This document shows positions 25,792-63,875 of a DNA stretch of 64,000 nucleotides, one piece after another. The stretch comes from Minisyncoccota bacterium (GTDB taxonomy: Bacteria > Patescibacteriota > Minisyncoccia > Phycocordibacterales > UBA9973). The position numbers and the translations under genes are program-made. The DNA is taken from assembly GCA_043776915.1 (NCBI GenBank), contig JAYVQT010000003.1, positions 26,187 to 90,186 of the forward strand, written 5' to 3'. The stretch's first letter is position 1, and every line of letters starts with the position of its first letter. The notes beneath the pieces were generated by a model. It saw nothing but the letters and a program-made list of their open reading frames with translations. It was not told the origin of the DNA and ran no database searches.

Positions 25792-28143
25792 TTATTGTCC
25801 TCCTGTAGTTTTAGCTGGCTTGGTTGGTGTTTTTGTCGGTGATGGAGTTGTAGGTACTGGAGCTGTAAATGTTTGAGAAAGTGAGCTCAGAGCATCTTTA
25901 ACATCCTGATTGTTTGGTAGACGCTTAGTAAGTGCATTAAACATATCCCTTGCTTCATCGATACGACCAGCTTTCTTATATGATTGGCCGAGTAAAAATG
26001 CCGCATCAAGATATTGAGAATTAAGTTTTAGCGCTTGCTGGAATGCATTAATCGAACCCTGATAATCAGCGTTATTATATTTGAGTAAGCCAAGCTTAAA
26101 GAAAACAGTAGAATCATTCGGAGCGACTATACTTGCTTTTTCAGCTTGCTTTATAGCTTCTGACATATTACCTTCACTAATATTTATTTGAGCAAGAAGG
26201 AATAGTGCATCAGTATAATCAGACTTTAGAAGTAACGCTTGATCTATAAACTTCTTTGCCTCGTCATTATTCTTATGAGCAACTTCAAGACTCGCACGAG
26301 ATAAAAGTATTGATGGATTATTTGGAGCGAGGGCGCGTGCTTTTTCATAAGCAACAACGGCACTTTCATAACTACTCCTCACAGCAAGAGGTACAAGTGA
26401 ACTATAGAGATTACCAAGATTCATGTAATTAAGATACTGTTTAGGATTCTGACTAATAGCAGATTTGGCAGATGATTCAGCAAGACTAATGAGTCTTTCC
26501 ACATCAGGCTTGAGTGAATCAGCAGATCGTGTCTTGTCATTTATAATAATACCAATATCAGCAAGGTAAACCTGGGAAAGGGTACGGTAATATACATCAT
26601 TTTGATCGAGTAATAATGCATTTGAAAGATGTCTCTCTGATTGGGCTAAGGATTCTATAGTATTCGTACTTACTTGACCTTTTGAAAAATAAATAAGTGA
26701 AGCGAACTTTTCTGCATATACATAAGTTGTCGACAGTGTTACAATCATCAGAATCATAAGAATAAGTATTGAGAAGAAGCTTGCTCGAGGATCATGAAGA
26801 AATGAGAATTCTCGCACATGCACTGATTGATTCATTACCAGAAGAGCTACGAGCATACCACTTGATACAAAGGCACATGCAAACATTGTGAAGTTTGGTG
26901 TGTAGAAAATAATAGTAGCCCATGAGTAGATAGTAACGATGAGGGTGCTCATTGTGAAGTAATTAGAAACATGAGCATGAAGTACCTTCTGTATAGATGT
27001 AATAATTTTCTTAATAACAGCATAGAGGAAAAGGAGCCATGCGAAGATACCAAGGAGACCGGTCGTAACAACAAAAGTCATAAGGGAGCTGTAACCATTC
27101 ACAAAATCTACATTCCAAAATACAGACTGTGCAACCTCCTTTGGTTGCCAAAGCGCCCAATCCATAACAAACGTATTTGGACCAGTACCAAAGAGTGGAT
27201 TATGACGAATAGCTTTATACGCAATTTGTAGAGTTGTAGACGCTCCAGGATGGACATCAACATTATATACACTCAAATTTCTTGAAATCAGATTTCCGAT
27301 TGAATTATTACCAATCAAGAAAATAAGACAAATGAAAATCATCACAAGAGAAACAAATGGAAACTTTTTCTTTTCGTGAGCTGCCTCATCTTCTCTAATT
27401 CTAGCTTGCTGAATAGATATCGTATAGACAAAAATAATAATAGAAAAAAGTCCAACAAGAATCCAAACAAGTGGTACATTTACAATAATAAGAAAAAATA
27501 CACCAGAGATCAGTAAGAAATACTGCATAGCCATGAATAAACCCTTTGTTTTTAATAATTCAATCGTTGCTATACAAAGTAGAATAATGAGGCCAAATAA
27601 GAGAGCGAAATCATTCCAGTTACCAACCAAGTTTCCCGAAGAAATACCCTTTAAGAATCCTGGTAGAAAATGCTCAACACTCACAACAATATTGATAATT
27701 TGAAATACAGCTACCATAGTCGCTCCAATAAAGAGTGCCTGGTAAAAGGACCAAAGACGCTCTTCTTTTTGAAAATGCATTATCGAGAGGAAAAAAAGAA
27801 TAAACAAAACCAACATGGATCCGAAGGTTCCTAGTTCAAAACCACTTCCCAATATCGATACATACGAAGAAGAAGAGAAAAATGAAGAAATTAGAAATAC
27901 AACAGGAATAGCGAGGGCAAAGAGTATAATTTTATCTTTAGGAATCAAGAACTTTCCTTCACCGAGCCTTGCAATAAGCCAGAAGAATAGCGAGAGTGTC
28001 GTCCCGACAGATATTAAAAAACCTTTATTTGCCTCGAGAGTTACTGATACATATGGAAGAAAGAAAAATAATGACAGGAATAAAGTTGCCAGAAGTGTCA
28101 AAAACGATACCGTATTGAAAAATTCAATTTTTTTAGATTCCAT
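25792..28143 (-). CDS. O-antigen ligase (Wzy_C)-like polytopic membrane domain fused to C-terminal TPR repeats, with a Pro/Thr-rich tail
   Basis: About 12 TM helices in the N-terminal 450 aa, TPR-like repeats (AxxxxxKAxxL periodicity) and a low-complexity tail TAPVPTTPSPTKTPTKPAKTTGGQ. Confidence 0.55.
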   Translation of the reverse strand: MESKKIEFFNTVSFLTLLATLFLSLFFFLPYVSVTLEANKGFLISVGTTLSLFFWLIARLGEGKFLIPKDKIILFALAIPVVFLISSFFSSSSYVSILGSGFELGTFGSMLVLFILFFLSIMHFQKEERLWSFYQALFIGATMVAVFQIINIVVSVEHFLPGFLKGISSGNLVGNWNDFALLFGLIILLCIATIELLKTKGLFMAMQYFLLISGVFFLIIVNVPLVWILVGLFSIIIFVYTISIQQARIREDEAAHEKKKFPFVSLVMIFICLIFLIGNNSIGNLISRNLSVYNVDVHPGASTTLQIAYKAIRHNPLFGTGPNTFVMDWALWQPKEVAQSVFWNVDFVNGYSSLMTFVVTTGLLGIFAWLLFLYAVIKKIITSIQKVLHAHVSNYFTMSTLIVTIYSWATIIFYTPNFTMFACAFVSSGMLVALLVMNQSVHVREFSFLHDPRASFFSILILMILMIVTLSTTYVYAEKFASLIYFSKGQVSTNTIESLAQSERHLSNALLLDQNDVYYRTLSQVYLADIGIIINDKTRSADSLKPDVERLISLAESSAKSAISQNPKQYLNYMNLGNLYSSLVPLAVRSSYESAVVAYEKARALAPNNPSILLSRASLEVAHKNNDEAKKFIDQALLLKSDYTDALFLLAQINISEGNMSEAIKQAEKASIVAPNDSTVFFKLGLLKYNNADYQGSINAFQQALKLNSQYLDAAFLLGQSYKKAGRIDEARDMFNALTKRLPNNQDVKDALSSLSQTFTAPVPTTPSPTKTPTKPAKTTGGQ

Positions 28144-50093: not shown

Positions 50094-50121
50094 TGCTATT
50101 ATATCATATATGATATACAAT
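50094..50121 (+). promoter_or_regulatory. Candidate promoter (TTGCTA, 17-nt spacer, TACAAT) for murA, overlapping the murB start region
   Basis: TTGCTA at 50093-50098 and TACAAT at 50116-50121. This places the -10 inside the ORF-track N-terminal extension and supports the 50146 start. Confidence 0.4.
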
Positions 50122-50145
50122 AATCAAATAACAATATATTCAGAT

Positions 50146-51654
50146 ATGAAAAAAACACAAACACAGAAAATAGGCTTCTTTATCAGAGAGTTGCGAGAAA
50201 AGAAAAAGCTGACTCAAGAGGCATTTGCCCAAGAACTTGGCACATCTCAATCAGCTGTCGCCCGAATGGAGAAAGGCGAGCAAAACTTCACTACCGAATT
50301 ACTTTCTAAAATAAGTGGAATACTCGAGCATCAAATTGTATCTATAAATAAATCTATGGATTTTCAAGTAGTTGGTGGTAAGAAATTACACGGCAGTATC
50401 ACGACGACATTTTCCAAAAATGGTTCTGTTGGTTTACTGTGCGCTACACTTTTAAACAAAGGAACCACAACACTCCACGGCATTGCTCGAATCGAAGAAG
50501 TCTATCGTGTGATTGAAATACTCGAAAGTATTGGTGTCGAAATAAAATGGACAGCTCCCAATACCGTCGTCGTCACACCACCCAAAATATTTACACTGAG
50601 TTCACTCAATGTGGAATCAGCAATTAAAACCCGATCAATCATAATGCTGATTGGTCCGTTAATCCATATATTACCTTCATTCTCTATCCCTCACGCTCAA
50701 GGATGCAAGCTCGGCAAGCGCACGATCTCAGCTCATACATACGCACTCGAAGAGCTTGGTGTTAAAATTAAAACCACAAATACTACATATGAAGTACATA
50801 TGACGAAGCTTAAGTCCTCTGATATTATCATGTACGAATCAGGCGACACTGCCTGCGAAAATATCCTCATGGCTGCGTCAAAAATTGAAGGAACCACAAC
50901 TATTGAATGTGCGAGTGGTAACTATATGGTTCAGGAAGTCGGCTTCTTTCTTCAAGCACTCGGCGTAAAAATCGAAGGTATCGGCTCAGGCACGCTTATC
51001 GTTCACGGAGTAAAAGATATACATATAAATCTTGAATACCATAATAGTGAAGACCCTATTGAATCGATGATGTTCATCTCCGCTGCGATAGCAACAGATT
51101 CCGAGCTTACTATACATCGTTGCCCGATAGATTTTCTAACACTTGAACTGTATCGACTCAAGAAAATGGGATTAAAATACAAAGTCCTTAAAAAATACGT
51201 TTCTAGGAATGAAAAAACAAAACTCGTCGATATACAAATTATGCCGAGTATTCTAAAAGCCCCATATGATAAAATTCATGCAAATCCATATCCTGGAATC
51301 AACATCGATAATCTTCCCTTCTTTGTGCCAATCGCTATACGAGCCCAAGGTACAACACTTATTCATGATTGGTTCTATGAGAATCGTGCAATTTATGCGA
51401 CCGAACTCAATAGGCTCGGAGCCAACGTTACTCTCGTCGATGCTCATCGTGTCTATATCACAGGAGGCACACCTCTTACTGCTGCCCAAGTCGTCTGCCC
51501 GCCAGCACTTCGCCCTTCTATGGTTATCCTGATATCAATGCTCGCTGCCGAAGGCACTTCTATACTTCGCAATGTCTATATGATAAAACGAGGCTATGAG
51601 GACGTCGCTGAGCGCTTGAACTCCATCGGTGCAGAGATTACCATACTGAAATAA
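50146..51654 (+). CDS. murA: UDP-N-acetylglucosamine 1-carboxyvinyltransferase (MurA) with N-terminal XRE-type HTH domain fusion
   Basis: Residues ~10-65 form an HTH_XRE-like domain (LRELREKKKLTQEAFAQELGTSQSAVARMEKGEQNFTTELLSKI). The EPT-fold MurA body follows, with the active-site Cys loop AQGCKLGKR. The ORF-track start at 50110 is also possible. Confidence 0.85.
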   Translation: MKKTQTQKIGFFIRELREKKKLTQEAFAQELGTSQSAVARMEKGEQNFTTELLSKISGILEHQIVSINKSMDFQVVGGKKLHGSITTTFSKNGSVGLLCATLLNKGTTTLHGIARIEEVYRVIEILESIGVEIKWTAPNTVVVTPPKIFTLSSLNVESAIKTRSIIMLIGPLIHILPSFSIPHAQGCKLGKRTISAHTYALEELGVKIKTTNTTYEVHMTKLKSSDIIMYESGDTACENILMAASKIEGTTTIECASGNYMVQEVGFFLQALGVKIEGIGSGTLIVHGVKDIHINLEYHNSEDPIESMMFISAAIATDSELTIHRCPIDFLTLELYRLKKMGLKYKVLKKYVSRNEKTKLVDIQIMPSILKAPYDKIHANPYPGINIDNLPFFVPIAIRAQGTTLIHDWFYENRAIYATELNRLGANVTLVDAHRVYITGGTPLTAAQVVCPPALRPSMVILISMLAAEGTSILRNVYMIKRGYEDVAERLNSIGAEITILK

Positions 51655-52542: not shown

Positions 52543-54009
52543 CTATTCAATAATAGTCATGTCTGATGCGGTAAGTCCTTTATCTAAGTCATCATGAGTG
52601 GAAGTTTTCTTACGGAGAAGAATGACACTTGCAATTGCAATAATTATAATAAAAATAAGTCCTATCTCAGTCAACATATTGTTTGATATTTTCACCTTTG
52701 CATTATCAGCGCTTGCCCCGAGAGTATTTAGGTCGATAACTCCGGGTTCTGCCATTTTTATCTTTTCTAGTTGCATCATCTCTTCTGTATTTGGTATTGA
52801 TTGTATTTTATTTTCAACTGATGCGCTGTGCTGTATGGGAACTTTTATTTTCGAAAGAGTCGGAGTAGTCAGTGGATAAAAGGCTGTATTTTCCCTATAT
52901 GGATTTTGAAGTGTAACTGATTTTAAATCTTCTGCTATAAAACCTGTTCGTCGTGGTGAGAATTTTAATTTATTTTTGGGTAACATTATTGTATTACCCG
53001 GAATAGTAAAACTATGAGTAACTCCTTGTACAGTCCAGTTAGAAATATCTATCTCATAGCCGGATTTATTCTCGAGCTCGATATATGGATCGGTCTCAGC
53101 ACCAACAGAGCTAATAGAAATCTCAGGTGAAACAACTTTTATAATCATTCGATCGGTTGCATCGGGGTGACTTACCCAATAATTGGAATAATATGAAAGA
53201 GACAAAACGTAGTCACCGGGATAATCATATGTGTAGGTGAATTCTTTCTGTTCACTAAGAGTAGTTATCATACCGTCACCGAAATTCCAGACAAATTTTC
53301 CTCGTGTGAGTGGCTCTTTACTGAGGCCGAGCGTTTGGGCGTCAACAGTAAAAGACAAACCTGAAAACACAATATTCTTCGAAAGAATATTGGTGGTGAT
53401 TTTTGGTATCTCAACTTCTTTTTTTATGACTGGTTTTATTGACACAGAAGTACTCGCTCCTCCACCTCCAGCAGAAGTCATAGTCACTCCATTAGTACTT
53501 CCTGGTTGATTATCCTTACCAGGAGTAGGAGGAGCGCCTGACCACGATCCATTCAAAAATTGAAGTGAATTCCCATCCCCTGCTGCTCCTTGGCTTGAAG
53601 CAAAGATAACTGAGCTCACAATATTTTGATCAGGATCTTTCAGTGCAATCGTCTCACTATCATTATTAAACCCCGTCCAACTACTATCAAACAAGAGCCC
53701 AGAATAATGTGACCAATCAGCTTTAAATTTGGGAGTATTTTGTGCAATGACTGCATAACCACCAGCCGGTACTTCGGACAATCCTTGTGGTACGAGCGCA
53801 TGCTTAGTATTGTCTGAGAAAAAATACCACTTAGAAAGATCAGCAGGAGCAGTACTTGTATTATGCACTTCAATCCATTCACGATTCGTATCAGTTCCCT
53901 CAAGATCATACATAATCTCTGAAATTTCAAAGCTCGCTACTACCAAATGAGGCAACAAGAAAAGGACTAGTAGTAAAGCCAGATGTAGTTTTATTATTTT
54001 CTGAGACAT
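52543..54009 (-). CDS. Cell-surface protein with lamin-tail domain (LTD) and C-terminal TM anchor
   Basis: Signal peptide, LTD signature EIMYDLEGTDTNREWIEVHN and a C-terminal hydrophobic helix. Confidence 0.65.
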   Translation of the reverse strand: MSQKIIKLHLALLLVLFLLPHLVVASFEISEIMYDLEGTDTNREWIEVHNTSTAPADLSKWYFFSDNTKHALVPQGLSEVPAGGYAVIAQNTPKFKADWSHYSGLLFDSSWTGFNNDSETIALKDPDQNIVSSVIFASSQGAAGDGNSLQFLNGSWSGAPPTPGKDNQPGSTNGVTMTSAGGGGASTSVSIKPVIKKEVEIPKITTNILSKNIVFSGLSFTVDAQTLGLSKEPLTRGKFVWNFGDGMITTLSEQKEFTYTYDYPGDYVLSLSYYSNYWVSHPDATDRMIIKVVSPEISISSVGAETDPYIELENKSGYEIDISNWTVQGVTHSFTIPGNTIMLPKNKLKFSPRRTGFIAEDLKSVTLQNPYRENTAFYPLTTPTLSKIKVPIQHSASVENKIQSIPNTEEMMQLEKIKMAEPGVIDLNTLGASADNAKVKISNNMLTEIGLIFIIIIAIASVILLRKKTSTHDDLDKGLTASDMTIIE

Positions 54010-54021
54010 AGAGTGAGGATA

Positions 54022-56322
54022 TTATTCTAGTACTTTGAGTAATACTTCTTCAGGAACCTCTTTTCCGGCCACACGTTTCTGCCATTGACTACGTGGGATA
54101 TTTTGATTAGATTGATTCGTTTGTACAGAAGGACGTGATACTGCCTCCGGTTCAGATTTTGTTTCTACCGGATCAGGTTTCGGCATTGTAACTGATACGT
54201 TGGTATGAACCGTCACATTATGAATTGGCGTCGGCGCCACTGCTTCTGGTTCTGGTTCTGGAATCGGAATTGCCAGGCGCGTAACTGGAATTTCAACTTT
54301 TAGTGGAACTGGTTCTACGGCCGGTACGGGATGAGCTATTGCTTTCATTAAAAGTTCTTTCAGTGATGCTTTCTTATCTTCGGATGCTTCTTTAGTTGGA
54401 AGATGTATCGCGGTAGTATGATGAGACTTTTTTAATGTCGAAAGAGATACTGGAACAGCTGTAGCAGCTTTGACTGGAATTGCCTGTGGTGAAATTTTCG
54501 GCGCTGACTTTTTATGATCATCTTCAATTTTTTCAAGTAAACCTTTTAAAAGTGGCGATGGACCTACATGCTTACGCTCAACTGGCGTATACGTTGGACG
54601 ATTATTTTGTATTGATGCTCGTGGAGCCGAAGAATTGGTAGTTTTATTTTGTGTTTGCGGCAAAGGATTTAGGGGTACTGAACGCGGAGAACTTGTTGGA
54701 TATTTTTGCTGAATTTGTTGGATAGGTTGAGCGTCTCTGATCGGTCGCTGCGATAGAGCGCTCGGGGCTTTTGCTCCAGTATCAGCAAATTCAATACCAA
54801 GCATTGCAAGCGGTGCAGTTGAATTCTTTTCATCTTGGCGAGCTGAACGCGTAGCCACAAAGCCAGTCTGAGGCTTGAGCTCTCCGCTCTTAATCTTAAA
54901 CATACAATCTTTACAATAGACTGGTCGGCCCTCTTTCGGCTCGAATGGCACCATGGTTACTTTACCGCAGTTTGAGCAGTCAGCTTTAAACTTCGCCGCT
55001 TCATCACCAACTTGGAGCATACCGCTCCACTTTGATATTTCATTTTCAACTTCTTCACGGGGTCGAGCATAAAGCGAACGTGACATATCTATAATCTTTT
55101 CTTTGACTCCAGCTGATGGATCAATCGTCATCGGTGGAAGAGTGCTTGCCGAGAATGGTCGACTGGTTACGCCGTCAATCATGAGCTTCAAGTAGACGTG
55201 GTAGTTCGGCAAATTCACTAAGTCTTGCGCCGTAAACTCAGGCTCAAATTCTTTCTCAATAAATTCGGCATCATCGGCACCAACGCGGAAGATAACCATC
55301 GTGCCGACGTTACCAAAAACAGCATCACGGACTGCTGTACCATTTTCATTCGATAGTTGAGCTGTATACTGGTGAGCAATAATTAAATTGAGGCGATACT
55401 TACGAGCCTCAGAGAGAATGTTGGCAAATGAATCGGTCGCGAAGTTCTGGAATTCGTCAACATAGAGATAGAAATCTTTACGCTCATCTTCGGGAATACG
55501 CACGCGCTCCATGGCGGCGAGCTGAATTTTCGTAATAATCATACCTCCAAGAAGTGCTGAGTTATCTTCACCGACGCGCCCTTTTGAAACGTTCACGAGA
55601 AATATCTTCCCTTCGTTCATGATTTTAAATATATCAATCGTCGACTTTGACTGCCCGACAACATTACGAATAATAGATGTTGAGAGGAATTGGCCAACTT
55701 TGTTCTGAATTGGGGCAATGGCTTCATTACGGAATTGCTCACGCCACTGCTCGTACTCATGAACCCAGAAAGCTTTGACCACTGGATCTTTCAAGTTGCC
55801 GATAATCATCTGGCGATAATCTTTGTCGACAAGCAGACGCGGAATACCAAGGAGTGTCGTACCAGGAGTGTCGAGAAGTGCTAAGATAGCATTATTGAGA
55901 ATGTACTCCATACGAGAACTCCAGGCATTGGCCCAAATCTTTGTAAAAATTCCCATCAATCCTGAAGCGACCAAGTGCTTATACTTTGGATCATCGAGCG
56001 CAATGACATTGAATCCGACATTAAAATCAACATCAGCAGGATTAAAGTAGATGACATCTTTGGCACGATGATCAGGAATCAGATGAAGAATTTCTTCCAC
56101 AAGCTCACCGTGCGGATCCACCACACAAACACCCTCGCCATTATTGATATTCTGAACAATCAGATTTGAAAGGAGGACTGACTTACCTGTACCTGACTTT
56201 CCAAGTACATACATATGCTGACGACGATCGCGTCTCTTGATCCCAAAGGCATTCTTGGTGTTACGAAAATTCGTCCGACCGAAGTAAGTGATGTCTCGAT
56301 TTTGTGGGATATCGTTGTTCAT
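54022..56322 (-). CDS. VirD4/TraG-like (type IV coupling protein-like) P-loop ATPase lacking N-terminal TM, with long disordered C-terminal tail containing a CxxC...CxxC zinc ribbon
   Basis: Walker A VLGKSGTGKS and Walker B plus downstream YLYVDEFQNF...NLIIAHQYTAQL, which match the T4CP family pattern. Paralog of 62397-63875. Tail of about 330 aa rich in P/S/T/K. Confidence 0.6.
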   Translation of the reverse strand: MNNDIPQNRDITYFGRTNFRNTKNAFGIKRRDRRQHMYVLGKSGTGKSVLLSNLIVQNINNGEGVCVVDPHGELVEEILHLIPDHRAKDVIYFNPADVDFNVGFNVIALDDPKYKHLVASGLMGIFTKIWANAWSSRMEYILNNAILALLDTPGTTLLGIPRLLVDKDYRQMIIGNLKDPVVKAFWVHEYEQWREQFRNEAIAPIQNKVGQFLSTSIIRNVVGQSKSTIDIFKIMNEGKIFLVNVSKGRVGEDNSALLGGMIITKIQLAAMERVRIPEDERKDFYLYVDEFQNFATDSFANILSEARKYRLNLIIAHQYTAQLSNENGTAVRDAVFGNVGTMVIFRVGADDAEFIEKEFEPEFTAQDLVNLPNYHVYLKLMIDGVTSRPFSASTLPPMTIDPSAGVKEKIIDMSRSLYARPREEVENEISKWSGMLQVGDEAAKFKADCSNCGKVTMVPFEPKEGRPVYCKDCMFKIKSGELKPQTGFVATRSARQDEKNSTAPLAMLGIEFADTGAKAPSALSQRPIRDAQPIQQIQQKYPTSSPRSVPLNPLPQTQNKTTNSSAPRASIQNNRPTYTPVERKHVGPSPLLKGLLEKIEDDHKKSAPKISPQAIPVKAATAVPVSLSTLKKSHHTTAIHLPTKEASEDKKASLKELLMKAIAHPVPAVEPVPLKVEIPVTRLAIPIPEPEPEAVAPTPIHNVTVHTNVSVTMPKPDPVETKSEPEAVSRPSVQTNQSNQNIPRSQWQKRVAGKEVPEEVLLKVLE

Positions 56323-57569: not shown

Positions 57570-57950
57570 TTAATTCACTTCCTGCTGATAACACGACTCG
57601 CAATACACAATATCAGGTCGGTCAGATGCATAGGAGGTCTCGAATTTTTTTTGACATATACCTGAATGCTCATGGTTTTCCTGTGTACACATACATGAAC
57701 GATTAAATAGATTTCTCTCGGGTCTAAATTTAATACGTTTCTCGTAACGACAGTTGGGGCAAAAACGTGGAATAGGAATAACGTGCTCTCTATAGAATTT
57801 CAATTCTTCAGATACAATATTGTAATTCCGCTCACAACCTATACATTTTAGTACCTCACTGGTAATACTATCACTAATATCAAGAATACTATCAATTACA
57901 TTTTCTGGTGCTATGGTTTCTTTTCCTTTTCTTACGGGTATATCATCTTG
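57570..57950 (-). pseudogene. C-terminal portion of a split Cys-rich modular protein gene: in frame with upstream CDS 57951-59261, separated only by a single TAG
   Basis: The 126 codons after the TAG stop of 57951-59261 translate to QDDIPVRKGKETIAPENVIDSILDISDSITSEVLKCIGCERNYNIVSEELKFYREHVIPIPRFCPNCRYEKR...CESCYQQEVN, which is colinear with the C-terminus of paralog 59736-61454. There is no in-frame ATG. The ORF-track 77-aa call begins at a TTG. Confidence 0.5.
57613..57703. repeat. 91-nt segment with 1 mismatch to 59779-59869 (3' ends of the Cys-rich paralog genes)
   Basis: Direct comparison shows 90/91 identical. Flanks are more diverged. Confidence 0.8.
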
Positions 57951-59261
57951 CTATGTAAATCCTCCAGCAAGGGCTTGTTCTTTTGAAAGTGGCATAAATA
58001 TTTGGCCTTGTGTTTCGTTATATCCAAAAGGAGAAAGTAGTGAAGGAAAAAATTCGCCATATTCAGATGTTTTTTTCATATGTTCAATTAATTTATTTTT
58101 GAGTAACTCATACTCATCTTTTTCGTACGGTCTATTTAAAATACAATAATTTGATTTTTTTAACCCAACACAACCAAAAAGATTTTGAGAATTATGGCAT
58201 GAATCACAATATTCAATAAAAATATCGTCCCATGAAAGATGCGAGAACTTAGTATAGGATGAATTAGACATTGCATGAGATTCATAAATCATCATCCCTA
58301 TGCCTACACTAAATATATCCATAGCGTCTTTCACTTCTGCAGTTGCTACTGAATACTTAATAGTATCAGAAGCAAAGATATCAAAATCATTATGACAATT
58401 CTTTGAATTATATATTACATCACCAGAAACATTTACAGACCTTTCTATTTGACCATAGCGATGCAACGCGTTAGTTTTTAACATTTCTTTCCATTGAGCA
58501 TATAGACTACTTCTTGTTTGGAAAGAATCTAAGTTGTATTTTTCCATACGTACCATATATTCTTCTTTTGTGTATTGCGTATTTAAAATACAGTATTTTT
58601 TATTACGCAAATTATATGACATAAAGCAATCTGAACAATTTCTACAATCGTAACAGTATGAGCAATTTATAGAATCATGTGTCAGGAGACAAAACTGACA
58701 ATTATAATCTCTATCGCAAGAAATACATTCATAAAGGAAGGTTCCCTTATCGATAATCATATTGCAATCACATGATTCACTTACATGATTCCAACAATTA
58801 CTTGAATAAAGAACATTCTCACTATTAAAAACATCAAAGCATAAATAACAATTTTTGTTATCTTGGGAATGATTAGTGTATTCACTTTGTATTGAATTTT
58901 TAGATAATAATGCAACACGAGGAACTTTTAATTGTAACTCTAAAAACTGCTCAAAAAATGGGCGAGAAAAATCTATTTCTTGTGCAAAATCTTTTGCATC
59001 CCAACTATCACCCCACCAACAAGCTGAACAATACACTTTAAACGGAGACAGAGGATTATAAATAGTGACAGTTGATTTAGTACATAAATCACAATTCCTT
59101 CGATATAAAGTCCTTTCATTACGCCAAGAATAGCGACGGCGTTGCCTGCAGTCCGGGCAAAATGTCGGTGGTGGTACCTTCATCTTCTCGTAAAAACCGA
59201 AGTCATCCGGTTCGATTGTGAAGTCTTTTTTGCAGTTTTGGCAGGTTTTTGTTTCTTGCAT
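57951..59261 (-). CDS. Cys-rich modular protein (N-terminal zinc ribbon plus internal tandem CxxC-type repeats); N-terminal 436-aa part of a gene split by an in-frame TAG
   Basis: N-terminal CQNCKKDFTIEPDDFGFYEKMKVPPPTFCPDCR. Repeats such as NCWNHVSESCDCN, ECISCDRDYNCQFC and CSYCYDCRNCSDC. The N-terminus is near-identical to paralog 59736-61454. Confidence 0.55.
   Translation of the reverse strand: MQETKTCQNCKKDFTIEPDDFGFYEKMKVPPPTFCPDCRQRRRYSWRNERTLYRRNCDLCTKSTVTIYNPLSPFKVYCSACWWGDSWDAKDFAQEIDFSRPFFEQFLELQLKVPRVALLSKNSIQSEYTNHSQDNKNCYLCFDVFNSENVLYSSNCWNHVSESCDCNMIIDKGTFLYECISCDRDYNCQFCLLTHDSINCSYCYDCRNCSDCFMSYNLRNKKYCILNTQYTKEEYMVRMEKYNLDSFQTRSSLYAQWKEMLKTNALHRYGQIERSVNVSGDVIYNSKNCHNDFDIFASDTIKYSVATAEVKDAMDIFSVGIGMMIYESHAMSNSSYTKFSHLSWDDIFIEYCDSCHNSQNLFGCVGLKKSNYCILNRPYEKDEYELLKNKLIEHMKKTSEYGEFFPSLLSPFGYNETQGQIFMPLSKEQALAGGFT
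59164..59244. repeat. 81-nt segment identical to 61360-61440 (5' ends of the two Cys-rich paralog genes)
   Basis: Character-by-character comparison shows 81/81 identical. Confidence 0.85.
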
Positions 59262-59318
59262 AAAATTATGTGTATGATATACTTTAGTAGTAAATGCTTC
59301 TCTTGTCAGAAGCTCCGA

Positions 59319-59345
59319 GAAAACCCCGAAAGGGGTTTTTGTTTT
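59319..59345. terminator. Hairpin terminator gaaaacccc gaaa ggggttttt
   Basis: 9-bp stem immediately downstream (on the minus strand) of the MazF-like gene stop. Confidence 0.5.
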
Positions 59346-59721
59346 ATATTATAAGACGTATCTTTTCTTTTAATCTATTTAATTCAGTTGATTCTACCTT
59401 TCCTACAAAACGTAGCAATCTTTTAGCATCAAATAATCGTACTTGCGAAAGTATAACGGTAGATCTATGAAATGATTCTAATGTAAAATAATATTTACCA
59501 ATCTTCGGCTGGCTCGTCAGAGGCACACCCATAAATATATGGTTGTTAAATTTTCTGGTAATCAAAACAGGTCTTTCAAAATTCTTATTTTTTCCATCTT
59601 CTTCATCTCCAATATTTTTACCCATATGTAAAAACCACACTTCTCCTTTACCAAAGAAAATTCTCTCATTCATTGAAATTTTCTTTTTTAAACTATTCCA
59701 TATGTCAAAATCTTCTTTCAT
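59344..59721 (-). CDS. PemK/MazF-like toxin-fold protein (putative)
   Basis: GEVWFLHMGKNIGDEEDGKNKNFERPVLITRKF...FMGVPLTSQPK resembles the MazF/PemK pattern (G.vw.v.f....G.E..k.RPvlv....VvPlTs). Start set at the internal Met to avoid overlap with the upstream gene. Confidence 0.45.
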   Translation of the reverse strand: MKEDFDIWNSLKKKISMNERIFFGKGEVWFLHMGKNIGDEEDGKNKNFERPVLITRKFNNHIFMGVPLTSQPKIGKYYFTLESFHRSTVILSQVRLFDAKRLLRFVGKVESTELNRLKEKIRLII

Positions 59722-59735
59722 ATTCAAATTATAAT

Positions 59736-61454
59736 CTAATTCACCTCTTTTTGATAACAACTTTCGCAATAAATAATTTCAGGTCGGTCAGATGCATAGG
59801 AGGTCTCGAATTTGTTTTGACATATACCTGAATGCTCATGGTTTTCCTGTGTACACATACATGAACGATGGAAAAGTTTTGGTTGATTTATAAATTGTAG
59901 GCGATTAAGAAATCTACAATTATGACAAGTATGAGGAAGTGGTAATCCTACACGTTGATAAAACTGCAACTCTGCTGGTATGATACGATATGCACGTTTA
60001 CAATTCTCACACGCAATTACTTCTTTTGTAATATCATCAGAAACATCTTGCAACAAATCAGGTACACCTGAACCATCTAATGTTGTCTGAAATTCTTTTG
60101 CACTTGGTTCACGCCATGTAAACCCTTGATCAAGGGCTTCTTCTTTACGTATTGGTACATAATCTTGTGCCAAACTCTCATTGTAAGCCAAAGGTGAAAA
60201 AGAAAATGGGAAAAAGTCGCCATATGTATACACTCTCCCTTGTTCATCGACATACGGCATATCTTTCATATGTTGTATTATTTTAGGAACAAGTATTTCG
60301 TATTCTTCTTTTGAATATTGTTTATTTAAAATACAATATTTATTCTTCTTCATACTTACACATCCAAAACAATATGACGTACCAAAACAATACCCACAAT
60401 ACTCTATCTCACGAACATTACCGAATGAATTAAAACAACATTTTAGTCCATATGCTCCATCTCCACAAGTCATACACTCGTATGCATTTTCTATATTCAT
60501 AAAAAGCTGACAGGAGTCATATGAATTTGCTGCTTTTAATACACTAATCTGTACATATCGTAGATTCTCGCCATTTTCAACAGAAAAGGAATCACGTACA
60601 TTTTTTGAATCACTAATTCTATCACCGGTACAATTAAGATTTCGCGTACCATGATAATATTTAACTGGGAACTGTTGCCAAAACTCCAAAACTTTTTCTC
60701 GAATATGCACGATGGATTGGTATGAAGATAGATTCATCTCAAATATCCTTCTCTCATATTCTTCTTTAGAAAGTGGTTCATTGAAAAAATAGTATGATTT
60801 ACCACGAAGATTTACACACCCGAAACAATTCGTACAACCACGAAGTCCTTTACTAAACCACACATCTACACAACTTTCACAATCAACAGAAAAGAACGTC
60901 TGGTACGACTTATATACCATGACACATTCGTAGCACAATTCATCATCTATTAATTCATGAGAATCAAATGAATTTTTTACATTAGTAACTTTTACAAGAT
61001 ACGCCGAGTCTTCGATAAAATCTGCATCGAAACACAAATATGCATTTTTAAGTCTCCCTGCCTCATTGCAGTAGTCAGAATTAATCATAAACCCAGCAGA
61101 AGACTTTGCCATAATAGGTACTCTCTTAAACAATTCCAAAAATTGCTCAAAAAACGGCCGTGAAAAATCATACTCTACACCATACTCTAACGCATCCCAC
61201 TCATCACTATACCAATATGTTGTTTCGTATGTTTGTATTGATGATTCAGGAGGAATACCTGAAAATGAATCCTTCCCAGTATGAGCATCTGTTCTACGAA
61301 AAAGATTACGTTCGTTTCTCCATGCTAATCGACGTACCATCCGACACTCTGGACACCACGTCGGTGGTGGTACCTTCATCTTCTCGTAAAAACCGAAGTC
61401 ATCCGGTTCGATTGTGAAGTCTTTTTTGCAGTTTTGGCAGTTGCGGGTTTCCAT
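59736..61454 (-). CDS. Cys-rich modular protein, intact 572-aa paralog (zinc-ribbon module at both ends, internal CxxC repeats, duplicated KYCILN.QYSKEEYE segments)
   Basis: N-terminal CQNCKKDFTIEPDDFGFYEKMKVPPPTWCPECR and C-terminal CENCKRAYRIIPAELQFYQRVGLPLPHTCHNCR...SCMCTQENHEHSGICQ...CESCYQKEVN. Confidence 0.6.
   Translation of the reverse strand: METRNCQNCKKDFTIEPDDFGFYEKMKVPPPTWCPECRMVRRLAWRNERNLFRRTDAHTGKDSFSGIPPESSIQTYETTYWYSDEWDALEYGVEYDFSRPFFEQFLELFKRVPIMAKSSAGFMINSDYCNEAGRLKNAYLCFDADFIEDSAYLVKVTNVKNSFDSHELIDDELCYECVMVYKSYQTFFSVDCESCVDVWFSKGLRGCTNCFGCVNLRGKSYYFFNEPLSKEEYERRIFEMNLSSYQSIVHIREKVLEFWQQFPVKYYHGTRNLNCTGDRISDSKNVRDSFSVENGENLRYVQISVLKAANSYDSCQLFMNIENAYECMTCGDGAYGLKCCFNSFGNVREIEYCGYCFGTSYCFGCVSMKKNKYCILNKQYSKEEYEILVPKIIQHMKDMPYVDEQGRVYTYGDFFPFSFSPLAYNESLAQDYVPIRKEEALDQGFTWREPSAKEFQTTLDGSGVPDLLQDVSDDITKEVIACENCKRAYRIIPAELQFYQRVGLPLPHTCHNCRFLNRLQFINQPKLFHRSCMCTQENHEHSGICQNKFETSYASDRPEIIYCESCYQKEVN
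59779..59869. repeat. 91-nt segment with 1 mismatch to 57613-57703
   Basis: See partner copy. Confidence 0.8.
61360..61440. repeat. 81-nt segment identical to 59164-59244
   Basis: See partner copy. Confidence 0.85.
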
Positions 61455-61455
61455 A

Positions 61456-61941
61456 TTATTTAATCAATTGAGTAAACTGATCGAGTTGTCGACTTTTAAT
61501 AGTACTTTGTATAAAACCAAGGGTTGTTTGTAATTCTTTAATGGTATTTTGGTTTGATTCTGCGAGACGTTTTTGATTCAATACATACCCTTTGATTACA
61601 TAGTGGCGAAGCGTTTTTGTAGCCCATTGTCGAAAAATAATTGCCTTGCTTGAATTTGTTTTATATCCCACAGCCAGAACAACATCCAGAGAATATAGTG
61701 AAACTGGTTTATCTGAATTTGCAATGTGCATTTTTTGCACATTGTTTTTTGTATCAACTTCTTTTGATCTCAAGAGATTATGTATATGTTTAGTGATAAC
61801 TGAACGCTCAATGCCAAAAAGCTGAGCAATTTGGATTTGTGTTGCCCAAATAGTTTCCTTTGAAATATCAGCGTGAAATTCGATATTCCCTTTTTTGTCT
61901 TTATAGATAGCGAGGTTATTTTTTAAATCATTTTTAGTCAT
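61456..61941 (-). CDS. RhuM-family protein (virulence-protein RhuM / Fic-DOC-associated family)
   Basis: KGNIEFHADISKETIWATQIQIAQLFGIERSVITKHIHNL matches the RhuM family N-terminal core. Confidence 0.55.
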   Translation of the reverse strand: MTKNDLKNNLAIYKDKKGNIEFHADISKETIWATQIQIAQLFGIERSVITKHIHNLLRSKEVDTKNNVQKMHIANSDKPVSLYSLDVVLAVGYKTNSSKAIIFRQWATKTLRHYVIKGYVLNQKRLAESNQNTIKELQTTLGFIQSTIKSRQLDQFTQLIK

Positions 61942-62369
61942 ATGGATTTTGTGTTGAGCAGTGATGAATGGTGTGTATCTGGCTTGTACGGCGTGCCGAT
62001 TTTAATTTCTACATTTTTGATAATTTCTTTTTTAATTGCTTTTTTAATATTAGACAGGAGTGATGCTTGATCATAGCCAAGAAATAGTAAAGATGGGTTG
62101 ACTTCTTTGAGGGTATTATACGAACCTTCATCGAGGTCGCCAAGAAGCACACGATCGATCTCGGGAACTTGTAAAAGACTTTCAATACGGGATGCTTCAG
62201 TATAAATTGGTATTTTGCCTTTTAACTTTTCTACCATACTATCACGTGCCACAATAGCTACGAGATGTTCCCCTTGAGCTTTTGCTTCTTTAATAAATTC
62301 ACGATGACCATCATGAATCCCATCAAACACTCCAAAAATTATAACGGTTCGCGATTTCATAAAATTCAA
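61938..62369 (-). CDS. Small cytidylyltransferase-like nucleotidyltransferase (HxGH motif; TagD/RibL/FAD-synthetase-like)
   Basis: FGVFDGIHDGHREFIKEAK is a nucleotidyltransferase (H/T)xGH signature; 143 aa. Confidence 0.6.
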   Translation of the reverse strand: MNFMKSRTVIIFGVFDGIHDGHREFIKEAKAQGEHLVAIVARDSMVEKLKGKIPIYTEASRIESLLQVPEIDRVLLGDLDEGSYNTLKEVNPSLLFLGYDQASLLSNIKKAIKKEIIKNVEIKIGTPYKPDTHHSSLLNTKSI

Positions 62370-62396: not shown

Positions 62397-63875
62397 TTAA
62401 ATAAGGGGTTCACTGTTTTTTTCTTCTATGGCTACTAGATTTGTAAATTCATCGTTTGTCGAATTAGTATTTCGAGTAATGGCCGCTTTCTCTTGAGCTG
62501 AGCGAATAATGGTCGACTCTTCTTCGGCAATGAGCTTCTGAGCTTCACCGGCTGGAATAGCGTACTGGCGACGAGAAGCTTCGATAATGCGTGTACGATA
62601 TGAGGGGTGAGTTGCTGGAAGCACACGCAATGTCTCCGCTGAGAATGGGTCATAGCTTTCACCATCAATCGTCATCTTAATATAAAATTCTCCCACTCCA
62701 AGATTGATCATATCTTTGACATCAAAGATCGGTGCGAACTCTGGCTTGAGCTTGACTGCATCGTCACCACCGACACGGAATGAGATAATCGAACCAATGT
62801 TTCCAAGTACTGCTTGCTGAACTTTCGGCAAAAGCTGACCGACATACTGGTGAGCTACAATCAGATTCAGTCCATACTTACGGGCCTCTGACAAAATATT
62901 CTCAAACGTATCAGTCACGATGTTCTGGAACTCATCGACGTACAAATAAAAGTCAGCACGATCTTTCGGCTCAAGCTTGGCGCGTGCCATACCGGCTTGC
63001 TTGATCTTAGTCAAGAACATGGCTCCAAAGAACGATGAATTCTCTTCACCAATTTTTCCTTTCGAGAGATTGATGAGCAAAATTTTCTGTTGATTCATGA
63101 GCACTTCGATATCAATCTTATTCTGCTTCTGGCCGAAAATATTACGGAGCATCGGATCAGACAAGAATTGCCCGAGCTTGTTTACAAGCGGAATGATCGC
63201 ATCAGTATCGAACTTCTCGGACCAGTCGGCGAATTCGATAGCCCAGAATCGTTTGACCATGTCGTCCTCAATATACTCGACAACTTTCTGACGATAGTTA
63301 CGGTCGGTCAGCATAGAGATCATACCGCGCATCGTCGCGTATGGATAGTCGAGAAGCGCAAGGACGGTGAAGCGAAAGACGTGCTCCAAGCGTGGCGTCC
63401 AGTTTGCACCGAACTGCTTACGCAACACTTCGATTAAGCCTTGGGTTAGTTGGTGCTTAAATGTCGGGTCAATATTAGCAAGTGGATTAAATGATGACGG
63501 AAAGTCAACATCACCCGGATCAATAATGCAGACGTCATTAATACGATCTTCGGGAATAAAATTCAAGATGTCATCGATCAGTTCACCATGAGGATCAATA
63601 ATACAAACACCTTGACCGTATGCAATATCTTGACGAATCATCAACTCTTGGAGTTTCGATTTACCTACGCCAGACTTACCGATAATATACATGTGTCGTC
63701 TACGATCAACACGCTTGATACCAAAAACGAATTTCTTTTCTTCAAGTGAAGCTACGTAATTCGTCCGACCGATAAAGCAGACTTCGGCAGGATCAGACTG
63801 ACCAAGAGTTGGTAAATCTGGTGGAGGTGGAGCGTACTTTATGATTTGAATTTTATTTGGTTTGTTGAGCGCCAT
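62397..63875 (-). CDS. VirD4/TraG-like (T4CP-like) P-loop ATPase, paralog of 54022-56322, lacking the C-terminal tail
   Basis: IIGKSGVGKS Walker A and YLYVDEFQNIVTDTFENILSEARKYGLNLIVAHQYVGQL. High identity blocks with the other copy throughout the ATPase core. Confidence 0.6.
   Translation of the reverse strand: MALNKPNKIQIIKYAPPPPDLPTLGQSDPAEVCFIGRTNYVASLEEKKFVFGIKRVDRRRHMYIIGKSGVGKSKLQELMIRQDIAYGQGVCIIDPHGELIDDILNFIPEDRINDVCIIDPGDVDFPSSFNPLANIDPTFKHQLTQGLIEVLRKQFGANWTPRLEHVFRFTVLALLDYPYATMRGMISMLTDRNYRQKVVEYIEDDMVKRFWAIEFADWSEKFDTDAIIPLVNKLGQFLSDPMLRNIFGQKQNKIDIEVLMNQQKILLINLSKGKIGEENSSFFGAMFLTKIKQAGMARAKLEPKDRADFYLYVDEFQNIVTDTFENILSEARKYGLNLIVAHQYVGQLLPKVQQAVLGNIGSIISFRVGGDDAVKLKPEFAPIFDVKDMINLGVGEFYIKMTIDGESYDPFSAETLRVLPATHPSYRTRIIEASRRQYAIPAGEAQKLIAEEESTIIRSAQEKAAITRNTNSTNDEFTNLVAIEEKNSEPLI

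Follow-up and report, generated by a model that had tools for sequence, protein, structure and literature searches.

The 64,000-nt window analysed here (positions 26,187 to 90,186 of contig JAYVQT010000003.1, from a Minisyncoccota bacterium) carries on its minus strand two tandem genes, FAM1 and FAM2, of an abundant and undescribed protein family that combines known fold types in a new way and whose core is without a Pfam model. The family protein is a solenoid with zinc-finger caps and does not consist of a string of zinc ribbons, and its genes recur in arrays beside a pair of VirD4/TraD/HerA-like ATPases, T4s and T4l, of which they may, as we tentatively propose below, encode the clients. 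The two copies, the parts of FAM1 and the two ATPases are located as follows.

59736..61454, minus strand: FAM1, family copy 1, intact, 572 aa with 33 Cys (open reading frame call and AlphaFold2 model)
61170..61454, minus strand: zinc module at the N-terminus of FAM1, aa 1-95 (site conservation; a weak hit to zf_Tbcl with E 0.015)
60705..61169, minus strand: FAM1 first beta-solenoid, aa 96-250, about 8 coils of 12 aa (AlphaFold2, hhalign, autocorrelation)
60255..60704, minus strand: FAM1 second beta-solenoid, aa 251-400, 13-aa coils, with the KYCILNKQYSKEEYE motif and a helix; homologous to the first
60045..60254, minus strand: FAM1 conserved acidic linker, aa 401-470, YGDFFP..SP.AYNE...G.TW, including the invariant W447
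59739..60044, minus strand: FAM1 C-terminal zinc module, aa 471-572, ending YCESCYQKEVN (BLASTP, hhalign, Cys conservation)
57570..59261, minus strand: FAM2, family copy 2, one frame of 563 codons with 37 Cys (single-frame translation)
57951..57953, minus strand: in-frame TAG in FAM2 at the position of the G-x-x-W Trp (TGG) (translation and alignment)
62397..63875, minus strand: T4s, short VirD4/TraD/HerA-like P-loop ATPase, 492 aa, upstream of the array (Pfam DUF87, TrwB_AAD_bind, T4SS-DNA_transf)
54022..56322, minus strand: T4l, long paralogous ATPase, 766 aa, closing the array (44% identical to T4s)

AlphaFold2 (AF2) models of FAM1 (predicted local distance difference test, pLDDT, 89.8; predicted template modelling score, pTM, 0.89) and of a FAM2-type ortholog (pLDDT 87.9, pTM 0.87) show the same order of parts: a zinc module, a solenoid with helix, a second solenoid with helix, the linker and a second zinc module. 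In both models confidence is low only where the first solenoid ends in a Cys-dense stretch (aa ~170-225, pLDDT 56-60), and in FAM1 this solenoid bears a C-x2-C-x2-C cap, the KSYYFFNEPLSKEEYE motif and a helix. When slices of the 118-sequence family alignment were compared profile against profile with hhalign, residues ~102-240 proved homologous to ~252-392 (probability 99.8%, E 3e-28) and the N-terminal ~80 residues to 477-567 (probability 99.4%, E 2e-21); by BLASTP, residues 477-567 of FAM1 also align with residues 2-82 of FAM2 (29% identity, E 8e-11). These sequence comparisons show that the two narrow, stacked solenoids arose by internal duplication and that the two end modules are homologous to each other. 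The bookend module that the initial annotation had described at both ends of the protein is borne out by these results, as is its duplicated K.YCILN..YSKEEY segment, which is present twice per protein owing to the internal duplication of the entire central part; each solenoid ends in K-x-Y-C-I-L-N-x2-Y-S-K-E-E-Y and is followed by a helix. The FFP..SP..YNE segment, reported as duplicated too, is found once per protein. The tandem short CxxC repeats of the same description do exist, as solenoid coils, for which autocorrelation of the family profile gives a length of 12 residues in the N-terminal half and 13 in the C-terminal half, and not as a string of zinc ribbons, and the individual repeat strings that it listed are real but were drawn from both copies and not from one protein.

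The family profile shows a recurring [KE][ND]xxY ladder on the coils. Conservation reaches 0.71-0.78 at the termini vs 0.43-0.57 in the solenoid bodies, and the best-conserved features other than Cys are the termini, the solenoid ends CFGCVNLRxKxY / YCILNKxYxKEEY and the stretch YGEFFP..SP.xYNE..P...G..W; the polar residues N47, Q104, E148, D164, N225, D313, N377 and N425 are invariant across the family. Net charge is slightly positive in the zinc modules (+1 and +3), the solenoids and linker are acidic, and the whole protein is negative (family median -8; FAM1 -18). The protein has neither a signal peptide nor a transmembrane (TM) segment, and the family is presumably cytoplasmic.

The putative metal sites lie at the termini. 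An alignment of 650 non-identical members to the family hidden Markov model (HMM) shows 89-99% conservation for the sets C6/9/34/37, C482/485/510/513 and C532/545/563/566, with 96-98% for the N-terminal zf_Tbcl site (C6/C9/C34/C37) and 97-99% for the C-terminal ribbon (C532, C545, C563, C566), which confirms the second C-terminal Cys module of the initial annotation. The C6/C9/C34/C37 and C482/C485/C510/C513 sites are present in both window copies and show correlated loss across the family. A further N-terminal set, N2 (C56/59/77/80), occurs in 47% of the sequences in a strictly all-or-none manner (r 0.99-1.0), which is how a true Cys4 metal site behaves; FAM2 keeps all four terminal Cys4 sites, and FAM1 has lost N2. 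Interior Cys, far more numerous in FAM2 than in FAM1, lie on a period-3 and period-12/13 lattice and are individually variable, with only C207, C210 and C365 above 90%. The quartet 327/330/340/343 co-varies moderately (r ~0.45) and may be an optional inter-coil site. An interior made of conserved zinc ribbons was rejected by the co-occurrence analysis, in which interior Cys vary one by one. The original notion of a metal-binding repeat scaffold therefore has to be divided: the termini are credible Cys4 metal sites, presumably occupied by zinc, but the interior consists of beta-solenoids. The Cys content had also been set too high, at more than 40 per protein, against the 33 and 37 counted in the window copies and a family median of 34 (maximum 47); some family clades keep the fold motif and have lost the Cys.

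The terminal modules share the CxxC...CxxC geometry of zf_Tbcl (PF13451), zf_Tbcl_2 (PF23477) and TIGR04272. With PF13451, the two window copies stay under the gathering score of 24, at 15.7 and 14.2 bits (E 0.015 and 0.044); among 65 diverse family members scanned against Pfam at E <= 0.1, 35 match PF13451 (best E 7.7e-7) and 27 match PF23477 (best E 1.4e-6), and some members in databases carry a precomputed PF13451 hit. FAM2 has C57-x2-C60-x17-C78-x2-C81, with a sub-threshold zf_Tbcl_2 hit (E 0.025), and the spacer of the C-terminal ribbon is longer and variable when compared with CxxC-x17-CxxC. Small CxxC-x17-CxxC proteins of Methanosarcina mazei bind zinc, as determined by inductively coupled plasma mass spectrometry (PMC12704099). 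Phage 'zinc-ribbon domain' models superpose on the family zinc module with a Foldseek probability of 0.98-1.0. However, zf_Tbcl-type domains are small stand-alone or accessory domains and account for ~40 of the ~570 family residues.

For the remainder of the protein no counterpart was found. The central ~400 aa gave no Pfam, NCBIfam or PADLOC match in either copy and no Pfam match in the 65 diverse members, sequence searches of the PDB with a single sequence and two profiles returned nothing, and fold searches returned generic beta-solenoids only, over 80-145 residues; sub-threshold hits to Trm112p, Elf1, MCM_OB and LIM at permissive E-values were treated as generic zinc-knuckle matches. The initial annotation had named structure prediction and profile scans as the way to check its claim of a protein without a described family. 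With a confident AF2 model and no full-length match to a characterised family, that claim holds for the full length and for the central ~400 aa, but not for the bookend, which is zf_Tbcl plus a zf_Tbcl_2/CxxC-x17-CxxC-like ribbon.

Three groups of known solenoids bear comparison. Narrow Cys-ladder beta-helix antifreeze proteins (TmAFP 1EZG, spruce budworm 1M8N, ryegrass IRI 3ULT) match structurally over 80-100 residues only; they are small, secreted and disulfide-bonded with Thr ladders for ice, whereas the family is predicted to be cytoplasmic, has two solenoids, zinc-finger caps and the [KE][ND]xxY ladder, and shows no sequence homology to them and no secreted, disulfide-stapled Thr-x-Thr ladder. 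Hexapeptide-repeat (left-handed beta-helix, LbH) acyltransferases and gamma-carbonic anhydrases differ from the family in its coil period of 12-13 residues; no Hexapep match was obtained with the window copies (E <= 10) or the 65 members (E <= 0.1), and the family does not superpose closely on the helix domain of the LbH acyltransferases. Pentapeptide-repeat DNA mimics such as Qnr and MfpA are acidic, rod-like cytoplasmic beta-solenoids acting on DNA-handling enzymes. The solenoids and linker of the family are likewise net acidic, but modestly so, the coils have 12-13 residues instead of 20-residue quadrilateral turns, and neither the window copies nor the 65 members match a Pfam pentapeptide-repeat model.

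The initial annotation had the coordinates and the minus strand right but counted three coding segments. Open reading frames (ORFs) of 572 aa (59736-61454) and 436 aa (57951-59261) were called there; 57570-57950 and 57951-59261 belong to one reading frame, and the three segments are therefore two genes, of which the second is split by a single TAG, the one internal stop in its 563-codon translation. FAM1 and FAM2 are 44% identical over their full length (BLASTP, E 8e-154), and tblastn found no third family copy in the window. FAM1 has full-length orthologs of 55-81% identity in many Paceibacteria. The TAG of FAM2 aligns with W447 of FAM1, a Trp that is invariant across all aligned relatives; FAM2 orthologs elsewhere are all uninterrupted (557-580 aa), and FAM2 ends at 436 aa in the public annotation (P0271). 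Stop-codon reassignment was rejected, as TAG ends 12 of 50 long ORFs and the orthologs carry Trp at this position. FAM2 may be a recent pseudogene, a split gene or the product of an assembly error, and split ORFs resembling it recur in other loci (L010, L039, L045, L063 and L082). At identical amino acids, the two copies share 94% of codons over the first 20 codons and 88-94% over codons 525-564, vs ~50% in the interior. This near-identity at synonymous sites, at 57570-57700/59739-59870 and 59142-59261/61335-61454, takes in the TQENHEHSGICQ insert, which is otherwise variable, and its presence at both ends indicates probable gene conversion between the tandem paralogs. The GC content falls to 0.319 at 58001-60000 (FAM2, a MazF-like ORF and the 3' part of FAM1), compared with ~0.38 window-wide.

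The family is large. A word-indexed search returned at least 7,980 clusters at 90% identity (E <= 1e-3) among 8,000 candidates, and when the representatives of 50%-identity clusters were scanned exhaustively with HMMER, 3,696 clusters matched at E <= 1e-3 and 1,469 at E <= 1e-30. The top 120 relatives are full length, 55-81% identical and all unnamed; in UniProt, members are called 'Zinc-binding domain-containing protein' or 'Uncharacterized protein'. Species-representative genomes gave at least 573 family hits, and the titles of the best 80 of these name Patescibacteria lineages (Nomura-, Staskawicz-, Jorgensen-, Lipton-, Giovannoni-, Sungii- and Niyogibacteria, Paceibacterota); some third-party assemblies are labelled 'Saccharibacteria', perhaps as a generic label. 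The family is chromosomal and mainly found in Paceibacteria, with a sister group in Gracilibacteria and Peregrinibacteria. It is absent from INPHARED phages and PLSDB plasmids and has one 48-residue partial hit in IMG/VR, and on these searches an origin from phages or mobile elements was rejected. Our literature search found no paper describing the family, and the eLife paper on conflict systems does not cover it.

The family is apparently not confined to the candidate phyla radiation (CPR), since members fused to other domains occur in genomes that do not look CPR-like. A clade of ~725-734-aa proteins with an N-terminal GNAT acetyltransferase domain comprises nine 90%-identity clusters, one of them named Bdellovibrionales, and has most terminal Cys replaced and the centre retained; one of its contigs (53% GC) encodes FliI/FliH, pyruvate:ferredoxin oxidoreductase and guaA/guaB. 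In one member the fusion partner is an inositol-monophosphatase (IMPase)-like domain, and one family gene is convergent with a stand-alone GNAT gene. These loci (L166/L167 10001-12196; L170 3687-6185; L173 11653-12129), the fusions among them in higher-GC genomes, are possible functional clues.

We assembled 84 family-centred loci from species-representative genomes, called ORFs and searched them with the family HMM, which yielded 243 family ORFs, nearly all on one strand within a locus. The arrays are operon-like and contain up to 8-11 copies per ~20 kb (L014, L029, L056, L041, L044, L082), with a median gap of 44 nt between successive family genes and 27-61% identity (median 40%) between paralogs of one locus; two metagenome-assembled genomes supply two loci each, ~8 copies in total. 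Unbiased clustering of the neighbouring genes identified the VirD4/TraD/HerA-like ATPase as the commonest by far, with 61 genes in 39 of the 84 loci, 60 of them on the family strand and 59 within three genes of a family gene; neither VirB4 nor a relaxase was among the neighbours clustered. An ATPase is present in 23 of 31 loci with arrays of at least three copies vs 3 of 14 singletons. In the reciprocal direction, 80 metagenome loci seeded with T4s contained family genes in 60 cases, including 26 of the 28 loci of at least 15 kb, and 112 of these 113 family genes were co-directional.

Two gene orders recur, DnaK-(x)-T4l-FAMn-T4s-DnaJ and T4s-CutA1-cytidylyltransferase-FAMn-T4l, the second of which the window follows; a third occurs in a Gracilibacteria genome, with a divergent TrmB gene followed by two family genes, Phd/ParE and a type IV coupling protein (T4CP)-like gene with E 7e-153 to T4s. 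The first order places a same-strand T4l-FAMn-T4s block between dnaK and dnaJ in many Paceibacteria (L015, L019, L020, L035, L062, L063, L071, L113, L116, L121, L131, L138 and others), with a divergent PaaX/TrmB-like winged-helix regulator upstream of dnaK. The link to coupling-protein-like ATPases, suspected from the window, is thus a conserved one, and of the two kinds of companion considered at the outset, homologs do travel with these ATPases, but the MazF-like gene is a local insertion, with other toxin–antitoxin (TA) genes in some arrays.

Both ATPases carry TrwB_AAD_bind, T4SS-DNA_transf and TraG-D_C signatures, with the first two passing in Pfam, but reach 38-50 bits against NCBIfam TraD/VirD4 models with cut-offs of 250-650; neither has a TM segment (maximum 19-residue hydropathy 1.03 and 1.23). 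Across loci the short form has ~490-510 aa and the long form ~660-870 aa, the latter bearing a zinc finger and also a tail that is disordered. In the T4l of the window, this finger is of the CxxC-x17-CxxC type (aa 445-476, nt 54895-54990; zf_Tbcl_2 E 6e-14, TIGR04272 E 9e-15), and the ~290 residues after it are low-complexity, rich in Pro/Gln/Ser/Thr and probably disordered. T4s relatives are 75-93% identical across the 80 metagenome contigs (L084-L163), which is extraordinary for a CPR protein and suggests that T4s may have an essential housekeeping role. A 2025 survey counted 5,713 VirD4-like genes in 2,918 Patescibacteria genomes, ~2 per genome and only 148 of them near virB4, and left their role open (PMC12102498).

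The reading that we favour, while regarding it as tentative and somewhat short of an even chance, is that the family proteins are diversified clients, either cargo or specificity adaptors, of T4s and T4l, a relationship deduced from gene order. Type IV coupling proteins have such clients and adaptors, as exemplified by Legionella DotL with DotM/DotN/IcmSW/LvgA, and a co-encoded set of proteins with conserved termini resembles a client or adaptor set; the flanking ATPases share domain signatures with VirD4, TraD and TrwB. In contrast to these systems, the window ATPases fall far under the family cut-offs, have no membrane anchor, form a paralogous pair away from virB4 and have neither a relaxase nor a secretion channel encoded nearby. 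According to the proposed mechanism, T4s and T4l would form a soluble hexameric-type motor on which the family proteins act as cargo or adaptors. The common handle would consist of the zinc modules at the two ends and of the C-terminal YCExCYQxEV tail, which is invariant; the more variable solenoid faces with their [KE][ND]xxY ladder would serve as paralog-specific binding surfaces, and the interior Cys would mostly pack or staple the solenoid core and not form a functional site. FAM2 would be a recently inactivated member whose ends were homogenised with those of FAM1 through gene conversion. In favour of a shared handle, the termini are the best-conserved parts and are homogenised between the window copies, and T4l has a finger of the same type. 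It is possible, though doubtful, that the family together with T4s/T4l constitutes an undescribed Patescibacteria-specific machine, in which a hetero-hexameric-type motor acts on, or is targeted by, up to a dozen zinc-capped solenoid proteins.

Several observations weigh against a client relationship. The putative link to the ATPases is read from gene order, and CPR genomes, which are small and highly syntenic, can retain a gene order in the absence of any functional tie. No ATPase lies within 10 kb of roughly half of the family loci, most of them singletons, and the T4l-T4s pair sometimes adjoins without a family gene between. Canonical coupling proteins are anchored in the membrane, but these ATPases are soluble. 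The ortholog identity of 55-81% suits housekeeping roles better than fast-evolving cargo. The non-CPR-like members, finally, are single-copy, fused to GNAT or IMPase domains and without a nearby ATPase, and have lost most terminal Cys; the function of the solenoid core therefore cannot depend on ATPases or zinc.

Among the alternatives, it appears unlikely that the family proteins are secreted effectors or surface components, delivered by the VirD4-like ATPases to the Patescibacteria type IV secretion system (T4SS) for the host cell or the cell surface. Such a role would fit the coupling-protein homologs that flank the arrays, the size of the paralogous family with its recurrent pseudogenes, the conserved C-terminal tail and the beta-solenoids, which are typical of adhesins and fibres, and T4SSs are widespread in CPR (PMC12102498). 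However, the ATPases lack a TM anchor and are hardly ever found near virB4, an exported protein with four to six Cys4 zinc sites of the cytoplasmic type and ~34 Cys would be unusual, the orthologs are highly conserved instead of fast-evolving, and the non-CPR-like members are fused to cytoplasmic enzymes.

A similarly small chance is given to nucleic-acid binding, in which four treble-clef fingers would contact DNA or RNA with the acidic solenoids as spacer or mimic, either as partners of the FtsK/TraD-like translocases during the uptake, segregation or processing of DNA or as independent regulators. Treble-clef and CxxC-x17-CxxC fingers often bind nucleic acid (general knowledge; discussed in PMC12704099), the zinc modules are the slightly basic parts of an otherwise acidic protein, and the partner ATPases belong to a DNA-pumping superfamily; yet the negative net charge of the whole protein, the absence of a helix-turn-helix (HTH) or known DNA-binding domain in the family, and the loss of terminal Cys with retention of the centre in the non-CPR-like GNAT-fused clade argue against it.

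We consider it less probable again that the arrays are a conflict or defence system of diversified sensor or effector paralogs driven by HerA/mad8-like ATPases. The ATPases match PADLOC mad8 (E 7e-14 and 9e-17) and HerA profiles, weakly, pseudogenisation is frequent, and the arrays draw TA and defence-candidate genes (MazF and a RhuM fragment here, Phd/ParE and Fic elsewhere). But T4s is 75-93% identical over 80 loci and sits at a fixed core site between dnaK and dnaJ, whereas defence systems are patchy and mobile; neither window copy matched any PADLOC family, the family is absent from phages and plasmids, and its paralogs are old and conserved, not hypervariable.

The same low probability applies to a role in proteostasis, redox or metal homeostasis, with the family proteins as Cys/Zn-rich holdase-like or zinc-buffering partners co-regulated with DnaK/DnaJ and CutA1. 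The same-strand position of the module between dnaK and dnaJ in many Paceibacteria, CutA1 after T4s in 30 loci, the ~34 Cys per protein and a single copy flanked by a thioredoxin-like gene and ArsP in one Nomurabacteria lineage are in line with this idea; however, the adjacency to DnaK/DnaJ is lineage-specific and missing from Gracilibacteria/Peregrinibacteria-type loci, interior Cys are not conserved and terminal Cys are lost in some clades, and the fixed architecture with its conserved non-Cys motifs favours specific binding over bulk metal storage. Very improbable is an enzyme with a catalytic site formed by the solenoid pair and the YGEFFP..YNE..W linker, for instance for acyl- or nucleotidyl-transfer akin to left-handed beta-helix enzymes: the family-wide invariant polar residues and the fusion or adjacency to GNAT and IMPase-like domains speak for it, but 65 members contain no Hexapep or other enzyme Pfam match, and 8-11 paralogs would be odd for an enzyme in a tiny genome.

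With regard to the wider neighbourhood, the initial annotation had placed the genes in an accessory island. This was rejected: the locus is a conserved chromosomal core neighbourhood with housekeeping flanks (aminoacyl-tRNA synthetases, Mur ligases, MurJ, LepA and a penicillin-binding protein in the window; cysteinyl-tRNA synthetase, L21, RecR, DnaB and tryptophanyl-tRNA synthetase elsewhere; also DnaK/DnaJ), into which the MazF-like gene and the RhuM fragment are local insertions. Three further genes of the array region are concerned.

61938..62369, minus strand: cytidylyltransferase-like gene, 143 aa, recurring in 18 loci
61456..61941, minus strand: RhuM-like ORF, 161 aa, matching PADLOC candidates; not part of the conserved module
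59344..59769, minus strand: MazF/PemK-like toxin ORF separating FAM1 from FAM2, 141 aa with a TTG start; a local insertion

The cytidylyltransferase-like gene, often together with CutA1, separates T4s from the family genes, and 17 of its 18 copies are on the same strand. The RhuM-like ORF overlaps it by 4 nt and matches only the N-terminal ~150 residues of the ~330-aa PADLOC candidates PDC-S05/PDC-S23; it is probably a truncated remnant. The MazF-like ORF overlaps the 3' end of FAM1 by 34 nt, with no sign of, nor room for, an antitoxin gene on either side. Phd/ParE pairs and a Fic gene lie within family arrays of other genomes (L165, L171 and the P0463 locus), and a DUF2214-like membrane protein and a hydrolase are also interspersed in the window. 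Directly downstream of T4l, a 488-aa protein (52543-54009, minus strand) combines a signal-like N-terminus, lamin-tail and PKD domains and a C-terminal TM segment, and its homologs recur on the same strand in 10 related loci. A 514-aa ORF (50110-51654, plus strand) is an unusual fusion, in which an N-terminal HTH_3 (Xre-type) domain is joined to a complete enolpyruvyl transferase domain of the EPSP-synthase/MurA type.

In several Gracilibacteria/Peregrinibacteria-type loci a divergent TrmB-type regulator precedes the family genes; on one 1.39-Mb contig (L168, GC 56%), at least eight family genes lie within 21 kb in repeated units, each after a divergent TrmB-family regulator. The TrmB gene of a Gracilibacteria locus (L171 9097-9861, minus strand) has an in-frame stop under table 11, consistent with the alternative code (UGA read as Gly) reported for Gracilibacteria, and the family genes there contain no such codon.

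Paceibacteria genomes of ~0.5-1 Mb can spend 15-20 kb on 8-11 paralogs of this family, and with ortholog identities of 55-81% across genera the family must matter to these bacteria. Its design, a pair of solenoids with 12- and 13-residue coils between duplicated two-finger zinc caps, is unusual, and the GNAT and IMPase fusions in other bacteria provide a route to its biochemistry in more tractable organisms. The reciprocal linkage offers a concrete, testable partner for the orphan VirD4-like ATPases whose role was left open (PMC12102498). If the proposed machine exists, it would explain the role of ~5,700 orphan CPR coupling-protein homologs, and the largest paralog family of these minimal genomes would be the working partners of the ATPases.

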